Positions 2,119 to 56,111 of a stretch of 64,000 nucleotides of DNA are shown here, piece by piece. The position numbers were made by a program, and so were the translations under genes. The DNA lies in NCBI GenBank assembly GCA_001189195.1, contig LFCQ01000006.1:56841-120840 (forward strand). Reading direction: 5' to 3'. The stretch comes from Parcubacteria bacterium C7867-007. Its GTDB lineage: Bacteria > Patescibacteriota > Minisyncoccia > Phycocordibacterales > Phycocordibacteraceae. Under the pieces are notes generated by a model, which worked only from the letters and a program-made list of their open reading frames with translations, ran no database searches and was not told where the DNA came from. How positions within the stretch are numbered: position 1 is the stretch's first letter; every line of letters starts with the position of its first letter.

Positions 2119-2186
2119 GCCGGTGGCAGGTTTGCAGTGGTCCCCCTCATCAAGGTACCTTTGAGGGTTCAATTCCCTCCACCGGC
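2119..2186 (+). other. 68-nt tRNA-derived palindromic element, copy 1 (GCCGGTGG...GAGGG-TTCAATT-CCCTC-CACCGGC)
   Basis: 8-nt 5' arm complementary to 3' end plus a T-arm-like hairpin; same 68-nt length and same ends as copy at 42282-42349; middle does not fold as a canonical cloverleaf. Confidence 0.5.
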
Positions 2187-2312
2187 ACAAGAATGTTGAC
2201 GAATTTATCATTGAGCAATAATATTATTAGCGATGAGGGGCACCTGCAAATAAGCAAGAGTACTGGGAAAGGCGGCCGAAAGGTCGTTTTTCTTTTTTGC
2301 TATACTCACCCC

Positions 2313-6454: not shown

Positions 6455-6497
6455 CCGTTGATTTTAATAAATATAGTGTTATAGTTACGTTAGAGTC

Positions 6498-6512
6498 GTA
6501 TCAGTTCGATAC
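6498..6512. promoter_or_regulatory. operator-like palindrome GTATC-AGTTC-GATAC upstream of XRE regulator 1
   Basis: inverted repeat 22 nt upstream of TTG start; paralogous site at 7023-7037 carries compensatory changes. Confidence 0.45.
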
Positions 6513-6533
6513 GAAGTATTTGGGGAGAGTGTC

Positions 6534-6914
6534 TTGGACGAAATTGATATCAACCTCGGTCGTCGTTTGCGTCGCCGTCGCCGTCTGTTGGGTCTGACCC
6601 AACAAGAACTCGCACATGCAAGTGGGGTTCGATTTCAGCAGATCCAGAAGTATGAGTGTGCCGCGAACCGCATGAGTGCCGCTCGTCTCTGGCAACTCGC
6701 TGAAGTTCTGGAGGTCCCGGTCTCCTACTTCTACGAGGGCCTCACCCGTAATCAACGGGAAGCTCTGGAACAGGAGACGGTCTCGTCAGCGAACGCAGCC
6801 ATGGCTAGCAAGGAGACGCAGGACCTGATCCATGCGTACTACAAGCTCGGAGAACGTCCTCGGCGACGCCTCCTCGATCTTGCTAAAGCCATGAACGGCG
6901 AGGTCGAAGCGTAG
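6534..6914 (+). CDS. XRE-family HTH transcriptional regulator, PraR/PhrR-like (TTG start, GGAGAG SD)
   Basis: RLRRRRRLLGLTQQELA...GVRFQQIQKYE...SAARLWQLAEVLEVPVSYF; about 60% GC. Confidence 0.75.
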   Translation: MDEIDINLGRRLRRRRRLLGLTQQELAHASGVRFQQIQKYECAANRMSAARLWQLAEVLEVPVSYFYEGLTRNQREALEQETVSSANAAMASKETQDLIHAYYKLGERPRRRLLDLAKAMNGEVEA

Positions 6915-6934
6915 AACACCCAGAAAGAAACACA

Positions 6935-6965
6935 CCGGCGGCCCCAAGGGTCGCCGGTTCTTTTG
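6935..6965 (+). terminator. intrinsic terminator CCGGCGGCCCCAAGGGTCGCCGG + TTCTTTT
   Basis: GC-rich hairpin with T tract; identical copy at 7332-7362. Confidence 0.8.
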
Positions 6966-7022
6966 TGAAAAGAAGGAATCATTGCTTTGAGCAAGAAAAG
7001 TGTTACAGTCCATTCAGGTTTT

Positions 7023-7037
7023 ACATCAGTTCGATGT
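7023..7037. promoter_or_regulatory. operator-like palindrome ACATC-AGTTC-GATGT upstream of XRE regulator 2
   Basis: same architecture and spacing as 6498-6512. Confidence 0.45.
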
Positions 7038-7059
7038 GACGAATGAGCGGGAGAGTGTT

Positions 7060-7308
7060 TTGGAAGATATCAATTTGCATGTCGGAAGGCGTATGCGCAT
7101 ACGCCGTCGTCTGGCAGGTTTCTCTCAGCAACAGGTTGGGGCTAAGTGTGGGGTGACCTTCCAGACGGTCCAAAAGATGGAATCTGGTCAGGTCGACATT
7201 TCGATAAAGCGACTCTGGAAACTCAGTGAGGTATTGGGTGTCCCCATAACCTACTTCTTCGATGGATACGGTGAAACTGATGACGGTTCTCCAGTAACCT
7301 CCTCGTAA
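7060..7308 (+). CDS. XRE-family HTH transcriptional regulator, paralog of 6534..6914 (TTG start; the ORF track extends it to 7000)
   Basis: nucleotide-level conservation with copy 1, including the GGGAGAGTGT-TTG ribosome-binding region. Confidence 0.7.
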   Translation: MEDINLHVGRRMRIRRRLAGFSQQQVGAKCGVTFQTVQKMESGQVDISIKRLWKLSEVLGVPITYFFDGYGETDDGSPVTSS

Positions 7309-7331
7309 CAGCGGTCTTCAAGAAGACTGTG

Positions 7332-7362
7332 CCGGCGGCCCCAAGGGTCGCCGGTTCTTTTT
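7332..7362 (+). terminator. intrinsic terminator, duplicate of 6935-6965
   Basis: identical hairpin CCGGCGGCCCCAAGGGTCGCCGG + T tract. Confidence 0.8.
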
Positions 7363-37316: not shown

Positions 37317-37358
37317 AAAGAATGAGGGCGGCTCTCCGGAGCCGCCCTCATTCTTTCT
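37317..37358 (+). terminator. intrinsic terminator AGAATGAGGGCGGCTCTCCGGAGCCGCCCTCATTCT
   Basis: long perfect hairpin and T tract. Confidence 0.75.
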
Positions 37359-40095: not shown

Positions 40096-40259
40096 CACCA
40101 GACTCCTTTGCGGTAACGCGAGAAATGATGTGAGTTCCATTACTCAAAGTACGCCCATTATAAAAAATGTCGAGGGTGATAAGGATAACAACAAGTATAA
40201 AAGAAATCGGCCGCACGAGGTGTGCGACCGACCATTTCTTGTGGGACTGGCCCAAATGC

Positions 40260-46804: not shown

Positions 46805-47105
46805 AACGGATGATGTTGGTGGCACGGGGTAGGGTAAGTGGATCAGACGAACCCGGGATAGTGCCAGAGATAGAACCTGCGGAGCCAGCTAGTTGTGAAC
46901 CGACAGTCGCAGAGATTTCAGCAGCGTTCAAGAATGCGATAATCGTACTTTGAAGCTGGAGAAATATAGTAGGAACGAGAAGCTGAAGAATAAGGATGAG
47001 AATACCGAGTCCTAATGCGCGAAAGATAGGCATAAGGGTGGTAGTTATTTGATAAACGTGGACTCTAACAGAGCACACACGTGAGACGATGCGGGTCTCA
47101 ATCAA
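46803..47105 (-). CDS. small hydrophobic protein (possible pilin-like/membrane protein)
   Basis: ORF with two hydrophobic segments; weak support. Confidence 0.25.
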   Translation of the reverse strand: MIETRIVSRVCSVRVHVYQITTTLMPIFRALGLGILILILQLLVPTIFLQLQSTIIAFLNAAEISATVGSQLAGSAGSISGTIPGSSDPLTLPRATNIIR

Positions 47106-47156
47106 ATCCTTCCTAAGCTCCTTCCATCTCCTATAACCACATCCCCTAAATCCAGG

Positions 47157-47699
47157 TTACACAACCTTCTCTTTGAGAAGTTGTGCATACTTCTCCTGCA
47201 CCTTCTGGAGCTTTGGCGCAATGATGACTTGGCAGTATCCCTGCATCTTATTCTGTGCGTAATAGTCTTTGTGGTATTCCTCAGCAGGGTAGAAGGTGGC
47301 CCCTTCTTCAATCGTGGTGACGATAGGATCACCCTCACTAGATGAATCACTCAGCTCTTTGATAAAGGCTACTGTCTCCTCCTTCTGTTCTGGAGTGGTG
47401 GGGAACACCACGGAACGATACTGCGTCCCAACATCGTTACCCTGACGATTTAATTGAGTTGCATCATGAGAACCGAAGAAGACGGTAAGGAGATCACGAT
47501 AGGCAACTTGTGAAGGATCAAACTCAATCTTAATCACTTCTGCGTGACCAGTATCTCCACCGCACACCTGCTGGTACGTAGGGTTAGCTGATTTCCCACC
47601 GGCATACCCCGGCTCAACGCCAGATACCCCTTTAAGCATTTTAAATACTGCTTCAGTGCACCAGAAGCACCCACCTCCAAATATTGCTGTTTCTGTCAT
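47157..47699 (-). CDS. msrA: peptide methionine sulfoxide reductase MsrA
   Basis: GGGCFWC active site. Confidence 0.9.
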   Translation of the reverse strand: MTETAIFGGGCFWCTEAVFKMLKGVSGVEPGYAGGKSANPTYQQVCGGDTGHAEVIKIEFDPSQVAYRDLLTVFFGSHDATQLNRQGNDVGTQYRSVVFPTTPEQKEETVAFIKELSDSSSEGDPIVTTIEEGATFYPAEEYHKDYYAQNKMQGYCQVIIAPKLQKVQEKYAQLLKEKVV

Positions 47700-47881
47700 A
47701 TGAGTAAGTATATCAAGTATCTATTTTTGACGTAATTCCAAATATAATCCCAAATATGTTATGAACAGGTATTTCTCGCTACTGTGTCCACCGCAGGCAT
47801 ATACTCCGAGCAGGTGCATCGAACTTTGATACAAAAGCACCTTGCGAATCATCGCATCATCAGTTAATCAAGGGGTCGATC

Positions 47882-48409
47882 ATGGGTTGGACAGACGAAC
47901 GTATTGAACTGCTCAAGAATCTCTGGAGAGATGGTCTCTCCGCCTCGCAGATCGCCAAGCAGTTGGGTGGTGTCACCCGCAACGCTGTGATCGGCAAGGT
48001 TCATCGCCTTGGACTATCTGGGCGTGCGACACCCTCGAAGCCGCAACGCACCTTCTTCAAGGCGCCGCGGCCTGCGAGACCGGTCACGGCAGCTCCGTCA
48101 GCACCGCGTCGGATATATGAGTCGGTTGAAGTGCCGACTCCCGCAAAGAAGTGCGGCACGGTGGTCGCACCCACACCCGTTCACTACGTGGACGAGTCGC
48201 CTGGAACGGCGACGATCACCACCCTCGGCAACCACATGTGCAAGTGGCCGATCGGTGACCCGTCACGCGAGAACTTCACGTTCTGTGGCAACAGAGCAGA
48301 GAACGGCCCGTACTGCTACAGACATGACGCTTTGGCGCATCAACCAGCCCAGGCCAAGAAGAAGTCTGCTGCGGCTGAACTTGCTCGCTCACTTCGCCGC
48401 TACATCTAG
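47882..48409 (+). CDS. gcrA: GcrA-like cell-cycle regulator family protein (about 60% GC insert)
   Basis: MGWTDERIELLKNLWRDGLSASQIAKQLGGVTRNAVIGKVHRLGL N-terminal DNA-binding domain and C-terminal CKWPIGDP...FCG...YC; AAGGGG SD. Confidence 0.75.
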   Translation: MGWTDERIELLKNLWRDGLSASQIAKQLGGVTRNAVIGKVHRLGLSGRATPSKPQRTFFKAPRPARPVTAAPSAPRRIYESVEVPTPAKKCGTVVAPTPVHYVDESPGTATITTLGNHMCKWPIGDPSRENFTFCGNRAENGPYCYRHDALAHQPAQAKKKSAAAELARSLRRYI

Positions 48410-48433
48410 AATCTATCCCTCGGGATATCAAAC

Positions 48434-48458
48434 GGGCCCCTCCAGAACAGAGGGGCCC
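48434..48458 (+). terminator. GC-rich hairpin GGGCCCCTCCAGAACAGAGGGGCCC after gcrA-like gene
   Basis: perfect stem; weak T tract. Confidence 0.5.
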
Positions 48459-48472
48459 GTGATCTATTTTCC

Positions 48473-48859
48473 TTATTGTTTCTCGAACTCTAAACAGACT
48501 GAGTTAATACAGTATCTCTTTCCACCTTTGTCCTCAGGGCCGTCATCAAATACATGACCAAGGTGACTATTGCAGTGCTTGCAGAATACTTCAGTACGGC
48601 GCATGCCATGCGCGTCATCTGAACGGGTACCTACATTTTCAGCTACAGCAGGATCTGTAAACGAAGGCCAACCACTCTTGGAATCAAACTTTGCATCCGA
48701 AGAGAAGAGCTCATTGCCGCAAACCTTGCAGCGATACATCCCGTGGTCGTGGTTATCAACGTAGGCACCTTTCCAAGGAGCTTCAGTACCGCCTTCGCGG
48801 AGAACAGCATATTCTTCAGGGGTCAATTTGGCACGAATTTCGTCTTCATTTATATCCAT
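48473..48859 (-). CDS. msrB: peptide methionine sulfoxide reductase MsrB
   Basis: CxxC...CxxC zinc site and RTEVFCKHCNSHLGHVFDDGP. Confidence 0.9.
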   Translation of the reverse strand: MDINEDEIRAKLTPEEYAVLREGGTEAPWKGAYVDNHDHGMYRCKVCGNELFSSDAKFDSKSGWPSFTDPAVAENVGTRSDDAHGMRRTEVFCKHCNSHLGHVFDDGPEDKGGKRYCINSVCLEFEKQ

Positions 48860-48917
48860 ATATGAGAATTATACCCCTATGACAAAGCGTTGCCGATAGG
48901 CTAGGATTAAGAGACGT

Positions 48918-49400
48918 ATGACCCGAACAGCCCTGCTGTCACTCCTTCTCGTGCTTACCTTCCTAGGCCTTGCAGATTCTTGGTATCTTGCCCAAACCGC
49001 ACTAGATGGCGCCTCTCTTGCCTGCAGCATTGATGGTCTTGAAAGCTTAAATGGTTGTAACCAGGTCGCACAGAGTGCGTATTCCAAGGTTATGGGAGTA
49101 CCGCTTGCACTATACGGTGTCTTCTTTTACGGGGTGCTGTTTGTTATCGCATCAGTACTCTTTGCTATGCCCTGGCGTGTACTCTACCGAGCATCAATTG
49201 TACTTGGAGTGATTGGTATGCTTCTTTCACTGTATTTCGTCTTCCTGCAGTTCTTCGTTATTAAAGCACTCTGCATATACTGCATGGCATCCATGGTCAT
49301 CTCCATTTTGATTTTCTTTGTCACACTACGACTGTGGAACCAATTCGCGGTTGTGCGTGTAGTGGAGCCCGTTACACCGGTGATACCACTTGTTTCCTAA
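48918..49400 (+). CDS. vitamin K epoxide reductase (VKOR) family protein
   Basis: 4-5 TM, CxxC redox motif CIYC and loop Cys pair. Confidence 0.7.
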   Translation: MTRTALLSLLLVLTFLGLADSWYLAQTALDGASLACSIDGLESLNGCNQVAQSAYSKVMGVPLALYGVFFYGVLFVIASVLFAMPWRVLYRASIVLGVIGMLLSLYFVFLQFFVIKALCIYCMASMVISILIFFVTLRLWNQFAVVRVVEPVTPVIPLVS

Positions 49401-49406
49401 CGTTTC

Positions 49407-50573
49407 ATGCCTATGCCACGCATCATCTCACTCGCACTTCTCACCCTGATGCTTCCGATACTCGCGCACGCAGCAACGTTTGCTGAAGATAAGACATTGG
49501 TCCTCTCAGATGCGCCTCCTGATAACACGTATCTTGCGGGCGTAACGGTAACGGTGAGTGCACCATTGCCTGCAGATCTTGCTGCAACCGGGGGTACCGT
49601 AACAACCTATTCTCCTATTACGGGTGATGCCCTTATCGCTGCAGGCACCATTCACATGCAAGAGCGAGTGGAGGGGGACGTGCGTGCAATGGGACTTCGT
49701 GTGTTGATTGATGGTGCTGTTAGAGGCGACGTAGTGGCAGCAGGCGCAACGGTTAAGGTTACTGCACCAGCACGTGATGTTCGTCTTTTTGGACTACAGG
49801 TACTTGCTACCGGAGGAGCAGAAGGACCGGTAACGATATACGGCACCGATGTAACGCTGGCTGGTGAGTATGCGGGTGATGTTGAGATAATTGCATCAGA
49901 CCGGCTCACCATTGGTCCAGATACCCGTATTCACGGCACGCTTCGCTATAACGCACCGCAACAGGTGGAGATACCTGCATCCTCGCTGGTTGATGGAGGA
50001 ATAACCTATACCGGATCGTATGCGTATGTCCCAACGAATGAAGAGGTTAAAAAGTTTGCGATTGCCGGTGCCGGCATCTTCTTTATGGTACGTGCACTTG
50101 CGGTGATGGTTGCTGCAGGTCTACTCGCAGGATTGTTCCCAATGTTTAGCACACCACTTGCTGCACGCGTATTCACACGCCGATACTCTCGTCTTAGTCT
50201 CATAGCACTGCTTGGTTTCGGTATCCTCATTGCTGCACCTGTCCTAATTCTTCTCTTAAGTGTTTCATTTGTCGGTGCAGCCATCGCTCTGCTTCTTGGA
50301 TCTGCATATATTCTTCTGCTTATCCTTTCATATCTCTACGCAGGTATTTTGGTTGGTGGGGCAGTGAGGCACTTTGCAACTAAGCGCTCGGCAACCCTCA
50401 TCTACTGGCAAGACGCGCTTGTTGGTATGCTCCTGCTCTTCATTGCAGGAAGTATCCCCTATGTCGGCTGGATTATTACACTCCTTGCGGTGTGTATCAC
50501 TCTTGGAGCGCTTGTTTCAAATCTATACCTCTTCGCGTTCCGCCGCACCACCTCTTGGCATACTGAATTCTAA
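49407..50573 (+). CDS. bactofilin-like beta-helical repeat protein with signal peptide and C-terminal TM domain
   Basis: repeats GDVRA.GLRVLIDGAVRGDVVAAGATVKV; 4 C-terminal TM. Confidence 0.4.
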   Translation: MPMPRIISLALLTLMLPILAHAATFAEDKTLVLSDAPPDNTYLAGVTVTVSAPLPADLAATGGTVTTYSPITGDALIAAGTIHMQERVEGDVRAMGLRVLIDGAVRGDVVAAGATVKVTAPARDVRLFGLQVLATGGAEGPVTIYGTDVTLAGEYAGDVEIIASDRLTIGPDTRIHGTLRYNAPQQVEIPASSLVDGGITYTGSYAYVPTNEEVKKFAIAGAGIFFMVRALAVMVAAGLLAGLFPMFSTPLAARVFTRRYSRLSLIALLGFGILIAAPVLILLLSVSFVGAAIALLLGSAYILLLILSYLYAGILVGGAVRHFATKRSATLIYWQDALVGMLLLFIAGSIPYVGWIITLLAVCITLGALVSNLYLFAFRRTTSWHTEF

Positions 50574-50577
50574 TCCT

Positions 50578-51051
50578 ATGGCTATTCCACATGTTGGTTC
50601 TGTTGCGCCCGCCTTCACTCTTCCTGATCAGGATGGAGCTCAACATACGCTCTCAGAAGCAAAAGGGAAGTATGCGCTTGTATACTTCTATCCAAAAGAT
50701 GATACCGGTGGGTGTACCAAGGAAGCCTGTTCTCTAGGAGAGTATTTCCCTGACTTCTCAAAAAGCGGTGCGGTGATATATGGAATCTCTCCGGATAGTG
50801 TGAAGAGCCACAAGAAGTTTGCAGAGAAATACAACCTGCCATTCACTCTCCTTGCAGATCCCGAGCACCAAGCCATAAAAGCATACGATGTGTGGGGAAA
50901 GAAGAAATTCATGGGACGTGAATATGATGGGGTGTACCGTACCTCATTCCTCATTGCACCAGATGGCACTATTGCGAAGGTATACGAGAGCGTAAAACCT
51001 GAATCACATGCACAGGAAGTACTGAACGACCTGAAAGAACTTGGTGCGTAA
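50578..51051 (+). CDS. bcp: thioredoxin-dependent peroxiredoxin Bcp
   Basis: FYPKDDTGGCTKEAC peroxidatic Cys motif. Confidence 0.85.
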   Translation: MAIPHVGSVAPAFTLPDQDGAQHTLSEAKGKYALVYFYPKDDTGGCTKEACSLGEYFPDFSKSGAVIYGISPDSVKSHKKFAEKYNLPFTLLADPEHQAIKAYDVWGKKKFMGREYDGVYRTSFLIAPDGTIAKVYESVKPESHAQEVLNDLKELGA

Positions 51052-51053
51052 CT

Positions 51054-51719
51054 ATGAATAGTAAACAGGAAGAACGGAAACTACGTGCAAAGAAGATACT
51101 CACTTATCTTAAGAAAACGTATCCGGAACCAAAGACAGAACTTGCCTATAAGACACCGGTACAACTTACCGCTGCTGTCATGCTTTCTGCGCAGTCTACA
51201 GACAAACGTGTGAATCAGGTTACAGAAACTCTCTGGAAGAAGTACAAGACCGTGAACGATTTCGCTGATGCTGATCTTGCAACTTTCACAAAGGAAATCT
51301 CAAGCATCACGTTCTATCGTAATAAGGCTAAAGCAATCATTGGTATGGCACAGCGTGTACGTAGTGAATATGGAGGAACGATTCCCAAGACTGAAACAGA
51401 ACTTGTTACTCTTCCCGGTATCGCGTACAAGTCCGCTCACGTGATTATGGGTGAGCTATACAACATATACGAAGGTATCCCCACAGACACACATGTACGT
51501 CGCTTTGCCCTTCGATTTGATCTCACTGATAGCAAGGATCTCACAAAGATTTCAAAAGATCTTGAAGCGCTGATTCCAAAAGGGGACTGGAAGTATGTAA
51601 ACAACGGACTGGTGTTGTATGGTCGCTATCTCTGCAAAGCGCTTCCACACGACTGTGATGGCCATCCTCTCACCAAGATCTGGCCACCTGCAGCAGAGCG
51701 TTGGCCGAAGAGCAAATAG
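51054..51719 (+). CDS. nth: endonuclease III (HhH-GPD)
   Basis: HhH-GPD LPGIAYKSAHVIM and catalytic region; C-terminal Cys cluster. Confidence 0.8.
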   Translation: MNSKQEERKLRAKKILTYLKKTYPEPKTELAYKTPVQLTAAVMLSAQSTDKRVNQVTETLWKKYKTVNDFADADLATFTKEISSITFYRNKAKAIIGMAQRVRSEYGGTIPKTETELVTLPGIAYKSAHVIMGELYNIYEGIPTDTHVRRFALRFDLTDSKDLTKISKDLEALIPKGDWKYVNNGLVLYGRYLCKALPHDCDGHPLTKIWPPAAERWPKSK

Positions 51720-51729
51720 TTGCGTATTT

Positions 51730-52017
51730 GATATGTGGGTATATAGTGCCCCCTAGGTTCGGTTCCTTGAAGCCTGTAAGGTCAGATGAGTCCTGAGGGG
51801 ACGATTCGTAGACACACCTGTGTGTTCCTCGTTGCAGTTAACCAAATGTCAGTTTGGTCCAACGCTCTGCGGCCTAATGGTGTGCGAGTCGTCAGGATAT
51901 AGCGCAGCTTGCTGCGCACTAACGTCACCCTAGTAGTCTAGAGGGATCGAACCAACCCTTTCTGTATTTCGTAGCCGCCACTTCGCGCGTCGCCCTCCCA
52001 GCGACGCGCTCTTTTTA
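51730..52017 (+). ncRNA. candidate structured non-coding RNA of unknown class ending in a strong terminator
   Basis: about 290 nt with no ORF, multiple hairpins, GGGGACGATTCG segment, terminator CGCGCGTCGCCCTCCCAGCGACGCGC + TCTTTTT at 51984-52016. Confidence 0.35.
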
Positions 52018-52061
52018 TACCTTCCCCTTTCATATCCACAGGATAGACTGTTGATATTGCT

Positions 52062-52871
52062 ATGGATTCTAGGAAGTTCAGGAAAATCATATGGGACTTT
52101 TATAAAAAACAAGGAAGGCATGATCTTCCTTGGAGAAACACCACTGACCCCTACCGCATCCTTGTCTCAGAGGTAATGCTGCAACAAACTCAGGTTGAGC
52201 GTGTTCGCGGATATTACGCTGCATGGCTCAAAAGGTTTCCAACAGTACGTGCGCTTGCCAAAGCACCCCTCGCTGAGGTCCTCACCCTGTGGCAGGGTCT
52301 TGGATATAATCGTCGTGCAAAGATGTTGCATGATGCAGCGAAGAAGGTGGTTATTGAATACAAAGGAAAAATGCCCACTGATCCAGATACTCTTGTATCT
52401 CTGCCCGGTGTTGGGCCATACACTGCACGTGCCGTAGCGGCATTCTCAATGAATGCAGACGTAGTGTTTATTGAGACAAACCTACGAACAGTAGTACTGC
52501 ACCATTTCTTCTCAGACAAGAAGCAGGTCTCAGATGCAGAAATATTGGAAGTACTAAGCAAATCACTTCCAAAAGGAAGATCACGAGAGTGGTATGCCGC
52601 ACTTATGGACTACGGTTCCTATCTAAAGCGCAGCGGTATACGTGTGAACACAAAGAGCATGAGTTATACAAAACAGACTGCTTTCAGTGGTTCTGGAAGA
52701 CAAGCACGGGGTGCCATTCTTAAAGAACTTGCACGAAACTCAGTAACGAAGAAACGCCTCCTCGTATTACTTGGTGACGATCGTATTGAACAGATGGAAA
52801 CACAGCTCAAGAAGCTTATATTGGAAGGAATGGTTGAGAAAACAGGAACATACTATACGTTGCCGAGTTAA
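52062..52871 (+). CDS. mutY: MutY-like adenine DNA glycosylase catalytic domain (no NUDIX domain)
   Basis: LPWRNTTDPYRILVSEVMLQQTQV...LPGVGPYTARAVAAF HhH-GPD. Confidence 0.7.
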   Translation: MDSRKFRKIIWDFYKKQGRHDLPWRNTTDPYRILVSEVMLQQTQVERVRGYYAAWLKRFPTVRALAKAPLAEVLTLWQGLGYNRRAKMLHDAAKKVVIEYKGKMPTDPDTLVSLPGVGPYTARAVAAFSMNADVVFIETNLRTVVLHHFFSDKKQVSDAEILEVLSKSLPKGRSREWYAALMDYGSYLKRSGIRVNTKSMSYTKQTAFSGSGRQARGAILKELARNSVTKKRLLVLLGDDRIEQMETQLKKLILEGMVEKTGTYYTLPS

Positions 52872-54148
52872 GCAGGATCTACACCGGAGCTGATAGCGAC
52901 CTGCTTAAGACGCATGCCTTGAATCGAGTTAGCTGCAATGACCCCGCCAACCGCAATAAGGATTCCCGTAACGATAAAGAATATAGTGAAGTTGCTGATC
53001 ATTAGAATGATGGTGCCCACGAGAGGTGCGATGAGTGCGCCTAATGGACGCATCATACGAAATATACTGACCGTGTTGATGTCTTGTTCAGATACCCTAC
53101 GAAAGAAGTGACCCTCTACCATTGCTTCAACAAGTGCAGCACCGATACGGGTTAGCAGAAGGATGCTCAGGATAATTAAGATAGAAGTTTCTGCAGTGAT
53201 GAATCCGATAAACGCAAAGGAAATACCGGTGCAGATGAATCCAGCAATGAGTAGTATGCGATCTCCAAATTTAGTGTCTGCGAGTACTCCTGCGGGGTAC
53301 TCAAGTACCACAAATGGAATCAACATCACCGCAAAGACCCACCCAAGTTGAGACCACGGAATACCTAATACGGTGTGAAGGTATAGAGGAATATACAGTG
53401 GTGCGAGATGGAAGAAGAATTGGAGAATACCCATCGCGATTGCTACGGCTCGTAGATCCTTATCCTTTGCAATGCATGCGCAGGCTTCCGTGACATTGTG
53501 TATGCCAAGAATATGCTTAGAGGGTAGTTTGCGAAGGAACATCAAGAGTATGACTGGTATGAGGGAGAGTGACGCAACCAAGAAGACTCTATCGTAATGG
53601 ACATCTCCATCAAGAAGTAGGCCAATGATAAGGGGCGCAATCACCAACATAATATTGCCCGCAGTGAGGAATGCTGTGCGTACACGGCCCGTTTCATCTT
53701 CGCTCTCAACAGTAGCTTCAAGAAGAATATCCAGCTGATACACCAGTAGGGGAGAAACGGCACAAGCAAGTGCTGCAAGTAGTACCGCACCGACTGCCGT
53801 TGGAATAAGTGCGAGCCATAGCAGGATGCACATCTCTACCAATGCAAAAAAGATCACAAGACGCTGAGCACCATGCTGCGCCACAAGCTTTGGCATGAAA
53901 GGGAAGACACCGAGTGTTACCAATGCACCCAAAGCGACCACCAAACCAGTGCTCTCTTTGGGCATGAATATCGCCAGATATGGCGTGAGTATATATATAA
54001 TGAGGAAAAAGTGCGCTGCAGCAAAGAAATTGCTTAGTGAAAGAATACGGCGCGCTTGCATAGTGATACGAATTGTACCATTTGCATAAAAGAAACGGCC
54101 GCACATAATGCGGCCGTTTCTTTGTAAAACTACGTTGCTACACTCCAA
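52868..54148 (-). CDS. MFS transporter
   Basis: 12 TM; 426 aa. Confidence 0.7.
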   Translation of the reverse strand: MECSNVVLQRNGRIMCGRFFYANGTIRITMQARRILSLSNFFAAAHFFLIIYILTPYLAIFMPKESTGLVVALGALVTLGVFPFMPKLVAQHGAQRLVIFFALVEMCILLWLALIPTAVGAVLLAALACAVSPLLVYQLDILLEATVESEDETGRVRTAFLTAGNIMLVIAPLIIGLLLDGDVHYDRVFLVASLSLIPVILLMFLRKLPSKHILGIHNVTEACACIAKDKDLRAVAIAMGILQFFFHLAPLYIPLYLHTVLGIPWSQLGWVFAVMLIPFVVLEYPAGVLADTKFGDRILLIAGFICTGISFAFIGFITAETSILIILSILLLTRIGAALVEAMVEGHFFRRVSEQDINTVSIFRMMRPLGALIAPLVGTIILMISNFTIFFIVTGILIAVGGVIAANSIQGMRLKQVAISSGVDPA

Positions 54149-56111
54149 TCAGTACCGGAATAACCATCGGTGCTTTATTGGTGCGGTTGAAGAGGTACCC
54201 ACTCATAACGTCTGTAAGATTGTTCTTCACATAGTCGAGATCTACCGGATTCATACCATGGGTAGAATCTTCCACTGTCTTCTTAATGAGCAGGCGGGCC
54301 TGGTTAAGAAGATCTTGGCTTTCACGTAGATATACGAAGCCACGAGAGATGATATCGGGAGACTTGCGCAGCTTTCCTGTCTTCAAGTTCACGGTAGCGA
54401 TGATGACGAACATACCATCCTTTGCGAGGGCCTGACGATCACGGATCACCACCTCCTGCATATCACCGATTGCAAAGCCATCTACGATAAGTGGGGAAGA
54501 GGGAACCTTCTCTTTGTGAATATCAAGGCGCTCTCCATCAATGATGTCGATCACCATACCGTTATCAGCAACGATGATGGAATCACGAGCACGTCCCGCC
54601 TGTTCCATTGCCTTTGCGTGTGATGCGGTCATCGAGTAGTACCCGTATGCAGGCATGAAGAAGGTTGAGTTAACTTTCTTATTGATCCAGATTAGCTCAC
54701 CCGTGTTGCCGTGACCGGTTGAGTGCACGTCACTTGAACGATAGTGGATGAGGGTAACCCCATTACGGTATAGATTGTCCTTCAGCTTCTGTACGGCAAT
54801 CTCATTTCCAGGAATAACTGAAGAGGAAAGAACGATGGTGTCGCGTGGGTTAAGCTGGACATTCTTATGCTGCTTCGTTGCGATACGCATGAGTGCTGCA
54901 AACTCCTCACCTTGTGCACCAGTAGAAAGAATAACAATCTTGTCTGGTGAGTAGTCACCAATTTCCTGTGCAGGGATAATTGTATCTTTCTTGATGTTGA
55001 TAAGATTGGTCTTCTGAGCAATCTCAAGGTTCGTCTTGATAGAACGACCCTCTGTTACCACCTTCTTTCCAAGCTTCTCGCAAGTCTCGATGATGTGAAT
55101 CATACGTTCGAACTGAGAAGCGAAGGTACCAATGATAAGACGTCCATGTACATTCTTGATGATTTCCTCAAGCGTTTCATGCACTTTACGTTCTGGCATA
55201 GAGAAGCCATCACGCTCAGCGTTAGTTGAGTCTGCGATAAAGAAGAGATTCTTCTGTGCAGCGAGTACACCCCAGGTCTTCTCTTCTTTTGCGGTTGGAA
55301 CACCGTTGTCATGATCCAGCTTAAGATCTCCCGTTACCACTACATTGCCGTATGGAGTCTCAATAGCGATACCCATGGAATCAGGAATCGAGTGAGTAAC
55401 ACCGAAGAACTGAACCTTGGTGGATCCAATGGTCATAGTCTGACCCGCTTCAACCACCACAATGTTTGGCTTAGGCACATCAGGATACTCTTCCTGACGC
55501 TTCTGAATCATCACCGCAGTGAGGTTCTGGGTGTAGATCGGTGGATTGCCGAAACGATTCATCAAGAATGGAATACCGCCGATGTGGTCGAGGTGACCGT
55601 GGGTGATGAACACACCACGTACACGATCGGTGTTCTTCTCAAGGTATGCCGTGTTTGGAAGCATGTAGTCCACTCCAGGATTGGAATCCTCAGATACGAA
55701 CTGGAAGCCTACGTCGAAGACGAAGATATCTCCGTTCGTTTCAACGCAGAACATGTTGCGTCCCACTTCCTCCACACCACCGAGCGGAATCACACGAACT
55801 ACGTTTGATGCCGGAGCAGCAGGGAAGTAGTCCGCACCACGCTTTGGGGTGCTGTTTGGGGCAGGGCGGCGCATACGCATGCGGTCGCGAGATGACCCAC
55901 GACTTGCTCCACGCGGCCCAGCAGGGCGGTTGTTGCGGGGTCCTTCAGCGCGTGGCGCGCTTCCTTCAGGACGCGGTCCACGATTTTGACCACCGCGTCG
56001 TACGGGACGACGTGATGCACCCTCAGGACGTGGGGTGCGTGCTGGGGAATCCTGACGAGGACCATCGTGCGGAGTACGAGGTGCCGGAGCAGGTGCTGGT
56101 GCTGATGCCAT
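54138..56111 (-). CDS. rnj: ribonuclease J with about 100-aa N-terminal Arg/Pro/Gly-rich disordered extension
   Basis: metallo-beta-lactamase HGHLDH, beta-CASP; N-terminus PAPAPAPRTP...RRGGQNRGPRPEG. Confidence 0.85.
   Translation of the reverse strand: MASAPAPAPAPRTPHDGPRQDSPARTPRPEGASRRPVRRGGQNRGPRPEGSAPRAEGPRNNRPAGPRGASRGSSRDRMRMRRPAPNSTPKRGADYFPAAPASNVVRVIPLGGVEEVGRNMFCVETNGDIFVFDVGFQFVSEDSNPGVDYMLPNTAYLEKNTDRVRGVFITHGHLDHIGGIPFLMNRFGNPPIYTQNLTAVMIQKRQEEYPDVPKPNIVVVEAGQTMTIGSTKVQFFGVTHSIPDSMGIAIETPYGNVVVTGDLKLDHDNGVPTAKEEKTWGVLAAQKNLFFIADSTNAERDGFSMPERKVHETLEEIIKNVHGRLIIGTFASQFERMIHIIETCEKLGKKVVTEGRSIKTNLEIAQKTNLINIKKDTIIPAQEIGDYSPDKIVILSTGAQGEEFAALMRIATKQHKNVQLNPRDTIVLSSSVIPGNEIAVQKLKDNLYRNGVTLIHYRSSDVHSTGHGNTGELIWINKKVNSTFFMPAYGYYSMTASHAKAMEQAGRARDSIIVADNGMVIDIIDGERLDIHKEKVPSSPLIVDGFAIGDMQEVVIRDRQALAKDGMFVIIATVNLKTGKLRKSPDIISRGFVYLRESQDLLNQARLLIKKTVEDSTHGMNPVDLDYVKNNLTDVMSGYLFNRTNKAPMVIPVLIGV

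Follow-up and report, generated by a model that had tools for sequence, protein, structure and literature searches.

A candidate structured RNA gene, present in sequence-unrelated versions downstream of nth in a Parcubacteria clade, with a possible 6S/Ms1-like role

A 64,000-nucleotide stretch of DNA from Parcubacteria bacterium C7867-007 (contig LFCQ01000006.1; referred to here as the window, in whose positions all coordinates are given) carries, on its + strand between nth and a mutY-like gene, a region that we describe as a candidate gene for a structured RNA. The upstream gene, nth (51054..51719, +), encodes endonuclease III (194-bit match to the TIGR01083 nth model), has a product 100% identical to the Nth protein of Parcubacteria bacterium C7867-007 and is the conserved 5' anchor of the RNA locus. 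The downstream gene (52062..52871, +), which is the 3' neighbour of the RNA in the window's clade, encodes a mutY-like HhH-GPD glycosylase that matches the HhH-GPD and HHH domains but scores below the mutY cutoff (184.8 as compared to 286.5 bits). The 342 nt that separate the nth stop codon from the mutY-like ATG (51720-52061) include the segment 51730-52017, in which a preliminary description of the region saw no plausible open reading frame (ORF), and this is borne out, as every ORF in the gap is 48 aa or shorter and none is conserved, judged from the ORF list and from a comparison with three relatives whose RNAs can be aligned with that of the window (loci L022, L037 and L040, which together with the window make up type A). 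A 38-aa ORF at 51786 is excluded by 2-nt indels in the type-A alignment and by the loss of its ATG in L022. A gene for a small protein was rejected more generally, as the window ORFs are unconserved and a leaderless-looking frame encoding MVWSGSLKA, seen in L022 and L040, is absent from the window and L037.

The gap contains the elements of a separate transcription unit. A sigma70-like promoter (51720..51747, +) begins 1 nt past the nth stop codon and consists of the -35 hexamer TTGCGT at 51720-51725, a 16-nt spacer and the -10 hexamer TATAGT at 51742-51747; from its placement, transcription is predicted to start near A51755/G51756. The first helix, the closing stem P1, is formed in the minimum free energy (MFE) structure by its 5' strand GGUUCGGUUCCUU (51756..51768, +) and its 3' strand AGGGAUCGAACC (51942..51953, +), and three of its pairs covary in type A. 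Within P1, the 5' strands of helices X1 (UCCUG, 51791-51795) and X2 (GACGAUUCG, 51800-51808) occupy 51791..51808 (+) and contain the segment GGGGACGATTCG. The 5' strand of P3 (CACACC, 51813..51818, +) pairs with GGUGUG at 51879-51884, and P3a (51827..51872, +), which is built from CCUCG at 51827-51831 and UGCGG at 51868-51872, encloses the apical hairpin P3b (ACCAAAU-GUCA-GUUUGGU, 51841-51858, +), which is kept in the relatives with a different sequence. The returning 3' strands of P3 (51879-51884), X2 (CGAGUCGUC, 51885-51893) and X1 (CAGGA, 51893-51897) fill 51879..51897 (+), and they are followed by the side hairpin P5 (GCGCAG-CUUG-CUGCGC, 51902..51917, +), which is part of the MFE structure and has a hairpin at the equivalent place in L022 and L040. 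Beyond P1, a single-stranded linker (51954..51984, +) bearing the C/U-rich motif CCCUUUCU at 51956-51963 leads to an intrinsic terminator (51985..52016, +), which comprises the stem-loop GCGCGTCGC-CCTCCCA-GCGACGCGC at 51985-52009 and the run TCTTTTT at 52010-52016. As the preliminary description had it, this terminator is strong (its stem has 9 pairs, 8 of them G-C) and its T run stops 45 nt before the mutY-like ATG; the several local hairpins and other features that it had listed also lie where it had placed them. The short conserved spacer that follows (52017..52061, +) is nearly identical in L001 and is the probable site of a promoter, possibly a leaderless one, that belongs to the mutY-like gene itself. 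The segment 51859-51873 (CCAACGCUCUGCGGC) is complementary at 14 of 15 positions to the 3' end of nth (51690-51704, its last codons); with a BLAST E value of 6.1 and no counterpart in L022, this pairing was judged to be due to chance.

In the window by itself, the statistics are modest. The + strand of the gap folds with an MFE of -102.6 kcal/mol (z = -2.42, equalled by 2 of 100 shuffles) and the - strand has a z-score of -0.96; the GC content over the gap is 0.52-0.545, as compared to 0.43-0.45 in the flanking genes. The closing stem reaches a z-score of only -0.9 in a duplex test, and a scan for terminator-like sites found 4 where 2.9 are expected. The case therefore rests on 13 related loci, which were gathered through genome and metagenome scans and contig look-ups, and which belong to a set of 20 distinct relatives, window included, whose Nth proteins are at least 69% identical. 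An RNA-sized insert is present directly 3' of nth, on the same strand, in 14 of the 20 (the window, L001, L002, L010, L022, L029, L030, L032, L033, L034, L037, L040, L041 and L042). The other six have no insert (L003/L011, L008, L009, L013, L026/L027 and L039); these RNA-less relatives keep only the last ~15-17 nt of the spacer between nth and the ATG, and in L026/L027 and L039 the mutY-like gene follows nth directly, 2-17 nt away. More distant nth homologues, from other phyla, have no consistent gap at this position.

Although the inserts differ in sequence, as described below, they are laid out alike. All 14 have a promoter-like site that overlaps the nth stop codon or lies within 13 nt of it, with the form TTGnnn, a 15-18 nt spacer and then mostly TATAGT; it scores 8-10 of 12, and the score is at least 9 at 10 of the loci, as compared to 3.9% of random 66-nt windows of the genome. 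P1 begins 2-9 nt past the -10 box and measures 10-24 bp in 12 of the 14 loci (our script followed only 5 bp of it in L030 and 3 bp in L032), and at 10 loci it beats at least 96% of dinucleotide shuffles. The core between its strands is 104-269 nt long. A motif of the CUUUC/CUUCU type is found in the linker at 11 of the 14 loci, and a terminator hairpin with a T run closes every one of the RNAs. Many of the hairpins are capped by GNRA or UUCG tetraloops. When motifs common to all versions were sought, only terminator-related and C/U-rich k-mers were recovered.

The strand on which the structure forms bears on the nature of the insert. With the terminator excluded, folding favours the + strand over the - strand in 13 of the 14 loci, with a mean gain of ~9 kcal/mol, and the stems use 5-15 G-U pairs, which argues for selection on an RNA and not on a DNA palindrome. 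These two properties also count against a MITE-like mobile element (miniature inverted-repeat transposable element), whose terminal inverted repeats would mimic a closing stem. Such an element would account for the 10-24 bp inverted repeats that bound a segment of 150-300 bp, for the presence/absence polymorphism and for the existence of several versions. However, BLAST of four versions against the window and the loci available to this search, together with a type-A covariance model, revealed no second copy, either in the 64 kb or at the loci; no consistent target-site duplication is seen; the variable unit includes the promoter spacer and the terminator, which lie outside the repeats; and the insert always occupies the same site in the same orientation. 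We thus regard a mobile element as extremely unlikely.

The constraint on structure can be followed most closely in type A. The whole-RNA alignment of its four members has 75% column identity, whereas nucleotide identity in their coding flanks is only 64-70%, so that the RNA is at least as conserved as the protein-coding genes on either side of it. On the RNAalifold consensus, 92.5% of the cells are paired, and 9 pairs are changed on both sides, as compared to 3.8 +/- 1.4 in shuffles (0 of 500 reach this number) and at most 3 when the partners are slid; these numbers are inflated, since the structure came from the same four sequences. The compensatory changes in P1 convert C-G to U-A and G-C to A-U. 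In P3, all cells are paired, and the window's CACACC/GGUGUG contrasts with CACUyC/GGAGUG in the other three members, with one compensatory change (U-A to A-U) that is specific to the window. One pair of P3a changes from C-G to U-A in two of the sequences. X1 is re-formed with different sequences, UCCUG/CAGGA in the window and GCCUU/GAGGC, CCUUA/UAAGG and CCUUA/UGAGG in the relatives, and the same is true of X2, for which GACGAUUCG/CGAGUCGUC in the window is replaced by GCGGC/GCCGC, ACAGC/GCUGU and ACGGCU/AGCCGU. The rod fold that includes X1 and X2 coincides with the MFE structure in the window, and in the other three members its energy exceeds the minimum by 3-4 kcal/mol. On these predictions, the most fitting picture of type A is a long irregular rod that runs through P1-X1-X2-P3-P3a-P3b and carries one side hairpin at 51902-51917.

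A plainer explanation is that the gap encodes no functional RNA and is a long nth 3' untranslated region or spacer, which supplies nth with a terminator and the mutY-like gene with a promoter. That nth has no other terminator, that genomes lacking the insert do well with a spacing of 2-17 nt between nth and the mutY-like gene, and that the window-only statistics are modest all fit this explanation. Against it, the conserved promoter is directed into the gap rather than into the mutY-like gene, with a terminator behind it; type A equals or exceeds its coding flanks in conservation and has compensatory changes far from both promoter and terminator; and folding is better on the + strand in all but one locus, with GC raised over the structured body. 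The preliminary description had named a plain nth 3' untranslated region as the outcome that would undo its proposal of a noncoding RNA (ncRNA), and the presence of a promoter-like site right at the nth stop codon in all 14 loci makes this outcome unlikely; we give it a very low probability. The proposal itself gains support from the promoter, the terminator, the closing stems across the loci, the strand-biased folding and the compensatory changes. The predicted transcript is very probably the product of a real, separately transcribed gene for a structured RNA.

To relate the versions to one another, they were grouped by pairwise local alignment with shuffling. Type A has four members, type B consists of L029 and L034, type C consists of L033 and L042, and L032 and L010 each stand alone; L030 is weakly linked to L002 (z ~4.8) and L041 to L001 (z ~3.8). 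The two type-B RNAs share their first ~35 nt only. In type C, the predicted fold is a rod with 44 pairs, in which 4 compensatory changes are seen and an internal loop of 9/9 nt is invariant; the versions apart from A and C are mostly predicted to be multi-branched. The type-A covariance model scores its own four members at 192-210 bits, and, run with filters off against the other versions, it gave full-length matches in the right place at noise level only (L041, 7.1 bits, E 0.28; L033, 4.4 bits; L029, 4.3 bits). We place the RNAs in a previously undescribed family that is anchored 3' of nth in a Parcubacteria/Paceibacterota clade, that has at least nine versions unrelated in sequence and that some genomes lack.

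The version carried by a genome does not follow the relatedness of its flanks. The genomes are roughly equidistant, with Nth 79-93% and the MutY-like protein 74-88% identical. The pairs with the most similar flanks, L034/L032 (80.3%) and L030/L041 (80-83%), carry unrelated RNAs, and their alignments break just past the nth stop codon and resume after the terminator. Alignment runs through the RNA in the window/L022 and window/L040 pairs, whose flanks are 64-70% identical, and in L033/L042, with flanks at 78%. The window and L001 (Nth 93% identical) are alike in the -35 and -10 elements and in the downstream spacer, and nothing between these can be aligned. The version does not co-vary with either the Nth or the MutY-like protein. 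Either whole transcription units have been swapped between lineages, or some lineages have diverged very fast while their ends were kept.

The first of these alternatives can be taken further, to a variable RNA cassette under diversifying selection that serves in defence, competition or compatibility, with its specificity residing in an exchangeable core that recombination in the conserved flanks swaps between lineages. The independence of version and flanks, which leaves L034/L032 and L030/L041 unalignable and window/L022 and window/L040 alignable, speaks for such a cassette, as do the mosaic appearance of L029 and L034 (alike in the first ~35 nt only), the 3' block that L030 has in common with the distant L002, and the presence/absence polymorphism. 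However, no reverse transcriptase, nuclease or toxin gene is adjacent, the neighbours being housekeeping repair and redox genes; the gap has no toxin-like small ORF; no match is found in phage, plasmid or viral collections; and, with relatives that form a star-like radiation, fast divergence in particular lineages could also be at work. We consider a defence or competition cassette improbable. A related idea, which we also consider improbable, is that the site 3' of nth is a dedicated expression slot for one of many anciently diverged, exchangeable and losable structured RNAs that have in common only their ends, namely the promoter, closing stem, tail and terminator, and that it is a polymorphic RNA-only locus under diversifying selection. 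If this were true, the occupants of the slot could be, for example, RNA-based determinants of compatibility or defence, or interchangeable decoys for RNA polymerase or a double-stranded RNA-binding protein in an episymbiotic bacterium of the Candidate Phyla Radiation (CPR).

The RNA region was also compared with known RNA classes. With Rfam 15 at the gathering score, the whole 64 kb yielded four tRNAs and nothing in the RNA region, and at E <=10 no family was assigned to the window region or to the 13 homologous loci. The best sub-threshold match joins the last 77 nt to mmgR/suhB (RF00519) at 19.8 bits, far from the gathering score of 41, and a similar match is present in L001 (18.9 bits). The preliminary description had been unable to place the RNA among transfer-messenger RNA (tmRNA), 6S, signal recognition particle (SRP) RNA or RNase P RNA, and Rfam 15 and ARAGORN likewise give no match to any of them. 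The hallmark of tmRNA is a tRNA-like domain (acceptor stem, T arm and 3' CCA context) combined with a tag reading frame. The segment GGGGACGATTCG, which had been likened to a tmRNA 5' end, is indeed present at 51797-51808; it is internal, however, and forms a strand of helix X2, in which 51800-51808 pairs with 51885-51893. ARAGORN called no tmRNA in the window and Rfam gave no tmRNA match at E <=10, and this assignment was rejected. Domain IV of SRP RNA and regions CR-I to CR-V of RNase P RNA are universally conserved sequence-structure cores; neither RNA is matched in Rfam at the gathering score or at E <=10, and the RNA is absent from the locus in 6 of the 20 relatives. Membership in the 6S family was likewise rejected by covariance model, with no Rfam match at E <=10 in the 14 loci.

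Several other candidates were rejected. A riboswitch or other cis-acting leader is at odds with a core that is not conserved across versions, with a downstream gene that varies (mutY-like or a HAD-IB hydrolase) and keeps its own upstream spacer, and with a ~30-nt linker between P1 and the terminator that has no evident antiterminator. The core of hammerhead ribozymes reads CUGAUGA ... GAAA around three helices; the window has CAGAUGA-GUCC...GGAC-GAUU (CAGAUGAGUCC...GGACGAU), which is not retained in L022, L037 and L040, and Rfam reported no hammerhead match. No reverse transcriptase is encoded among the neighbours at any of the fetched loci, as would be the case for a retron or another ncRNA associated with this enzyme. 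A CsrA-type sponge was discarded because no loop motif, GGA or other, recurs. As to a viral, phage or plasmid origin, two pattern scans of IMG/VR returned only unrelated coding matches, and blastn gave no match either for ten versions (one per type, both members of type B) searched against phages or for the window copy searched against plasmids.

From the near-consensus promoter, the purifying and structure-preserving selection inside each version, the interchangeable bodies, the dispensability of the RNA, the absence of a partner gene and the lack of co-variation with Nth or the MutY-like protein, we infer that the RNA would act in trans on a protein, which it would bind by virtue of its shape. 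Among single mechanisms, the likeliest by analogy would be protein binding of the 6S/Ms1 kind with sequestration of RNA polymerase, which taken as a mechanism is possible though tentative. The statement as a whole, that this is a real RNA gene with a 6S/Ms1-like role, has in our estimate a probability of about 0.45. In our reading of the locus, the housekeeping-type promoter that abuts the nth stop codon would start transcription near 51755, and 51756-51768 would close on 51942-51953 to enclose a ~170-nt core folded as an irregular rod with one side hairpin; the C/U-rich linker and the intrinsic terminator would end the transcript, with a gene span of 51748-52016 (+). As nth is without a terminator of its own, nth transcripts would also run into the RNA. 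The body of the RNA would then sequester RNA polymerase in the fashion of 6S or Ms1.

The hallmark of 6S RNA is a central bubble, large and single-stranded, that resembles an open promoter; 6S binds the sigma70 holoenzyme and templates a product RNA. The nth-associated RNA resembles 6S (ssrS, RF00013) in being a structured RNA of 150-200 nt with a strong housekeeping promoter, in which shape is kept over sequence, and in having an end-to-end closing stem, an extended irregular helix and an apical stem-loop. The rod and closing stem are found here in that P1 is present in 12 of the 14 loci, the type-A rod lies within 0-4 kcal/mol of the MFE and the type-C rod has 44 pairs, interrupted by the invariant 9/9-nt internal loop. 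However, the type-C loop does not reach the size of the central bubble of 6S, and in type A a bulged three-way junction is predicted. Also unlike 6S, the nth-associated RNA is polymorphic and dispensable between close relatives, and it comes with a terminator of its own and a 3' tail 10-45 nt long.

A second parallel is Ms1, which is a single-gene unit with a primary-sigma promoter, a rho-independent terminator ~300 nt downstream and a long hairpin closed by its ends; it has no BLAST similarity between genera, leaves syntenic gaps of 6-100 nt in taxa that are without it, and is linked to an "IB HAD hydrolase" (PMC4191392; PMC9130861). Both RNAs are stand-alone units with a promoter of the primary-sigma type and a rho-independent terminator, both form a long hairpin of ~220-300 nt closed by the 5' and 3' ends, and both are unalignable between genera or versions and are traced by synteny, with a gap that is too short in some taxa. 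A HAD-IB neighbour is also found here, in L010 and L002 only. The gene order in L010 (1061-2876) is nth, the RNA, a HAD-IB hydrolase gene and the mutY-like gene, and the hydrolase matches TIGR01490 at 106.5 bits, as compared to a cutoff of 98.3; L002 (4667-5751) has the same arrangement of RNA and HAD-IB gene. L010 and L002 belong to a more distant clade of Paceibacterota, and in L009 a HAD gene directly follows nth, without the RNA. Ms1 differs in being an actinobacterial RNA that binds the core polymerase by way of a central bubble, whereas the nth-associated RNA occurs in a different phylum and its polymerase binding is proposed by analogy. The anchor here is nth, HAD-IB adjoins 2 of 14 copies and close relatives carry unrelated versions; moreover, no Rfam family is matched at E <=10 and the predicted folds are without a clear central bubble.

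A number of these observations weigh against a 6S/Ms1-like role. The predicted folds are three-way junctions or contain small internal loops, and not the large central bubble of 6S and Ms1; a 6S RNA would not usually have unrelated versions in close genomes or be missing from 6 of 20 relatives; no copy was assigned to a family in the Rfam scans at E <=10; and, with other versions missed by the type-A model, the family is defined by its locus, its ends and its architecture, and not by a common core. The adjacency to HAD-IB, a post hoc observation, is limited to 2 of 14 loci, and the 64-kb window contains no HAD-IB gene. In addition, the transcription start is a prediction, and there are 14 sequences in total, 4 of them of the window's subtype, with the tested structure derived from the same sequences.

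The C/U-rich linker raises a different possibility, which is that the RNA is a small RNA (sRNA) that base-pairs in trans, with the body stabilising the transcript and a single strand, such as the linker, pairing with target mRNAs. The linker is the only single-stranded feature common to most versions (11 of 14), the unit has its stand-alone promoter and terminator, and rapid turnover and patchy presence are typical of this class. The weak matches to mmgR/suhB point the same way; the likeness is confined to the 3' module, where both have a hairpin, a C/U-rich single strand and a G+C-rich terminator, whereas the ~200-nt structured body is ignored by a match that spans the last ~75 nt and scores far under the gathering score. 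On the other hand, with Shine-Dalgarno (SD) motifs as rare as they are (5 of 33 genes) and with numerous leaderless-looking genes, an anti-SD seed would have few targets; no excess pairing is detected with the start of the downstream mRNA (z -2.3 to +0.8); and the resemblance to the 16S 3' tail is at background except in L033. A body of 150-270 nt with purifying selection and covarying helices also exceeds what a stabiliser needs. We consider a base-pairing sRNA unlikely, if worth keeping in mind beside the 6S/Ms1-like reading.

CPR bacteria have tiny genomes with few regulators, and their genes are mostly SD-less or leaderless. To our knowledge, almost nothing has been established about their regulatory RNAs, and no description of an ncRNA of this kind from CPR bacteria or Parcubacteria was found in the literature. 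A strongly promoted and structurally constrained RNA that is carried at a single locus across a clade would rank among the first CPR-specific ncRNA families, and it would be a candidate for the missing global regulator of the 6S/Ms1 type. Bacterial RNA genes do not usually occur in unrelated versions beside closely similar flanks, and if this pattern is confirmed it would point to cassette-like exchange of an RNA gene or to selection on shape only.

The RNA locus lies within a conserved cluster for oxidative damage, which occupies 47000-56000 in the window and is found at all related loci. In order, the cluster comprises genes for SelR/MsrB, VKOR, DUF8173, an AhpC/TSA peroxiredoxin, Nth and the MutY-like protein, and it is followed on the opposite strand by an MFS transporter and RNase J. 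Across the window, an SD-like motif precedes only 5 of the 33 long ORFs, and in many of them the ATG follows a -10-like box at a distance of 6-9 nt, which suggests that leaderless mRNAs may be widespread, including those of the mutY-like gene and its homologues (GGTAGCATGGGGATATG type).

Other features of the window lie apart from this cluster. A tRNA-like element at 2119-2187 (+) is located downstream of tRNA-Thr(CGU) (1956-2031) and its terminator. Its acceptor stem has 7 bp (GCCGGUG/CACCGGC) and its T arm is canonical (GAGGG-UUCAAUU-CCCUC), but the D and anticodon arms are aberrant. The element scores 20.7 bits against Rfam tRNA (gathering score 29) and 23.6 bits against mascRNA-menRNA (gathering score 42.5), is not called by ARAGORN and has a fold z-score of -3.1; it may represent either the remnant of a tRNA gene or a processing signal of tRNA-like form. 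At 6458-7355 (+), two tandem paralogous small genes (6534-6914 and 7000-7308), whose products look helix-turn-helix-like by eye, each have a sigma70-like promoter and a similar ~45-nt leader (aUCAGUUCGAU..GGGAGAGUGUyUUGGA), and their terminators, at 6934-6958 and 7331-7355, are nearly identical. Strong terminator-like hairpins are also present at 2266-2293 (+), 40205-40233 (-) and 37323-37350 (-), each with 270-350 nt upstream that contain no ORF of 70 aa or longer, and these may mark other small genes or RNAs.

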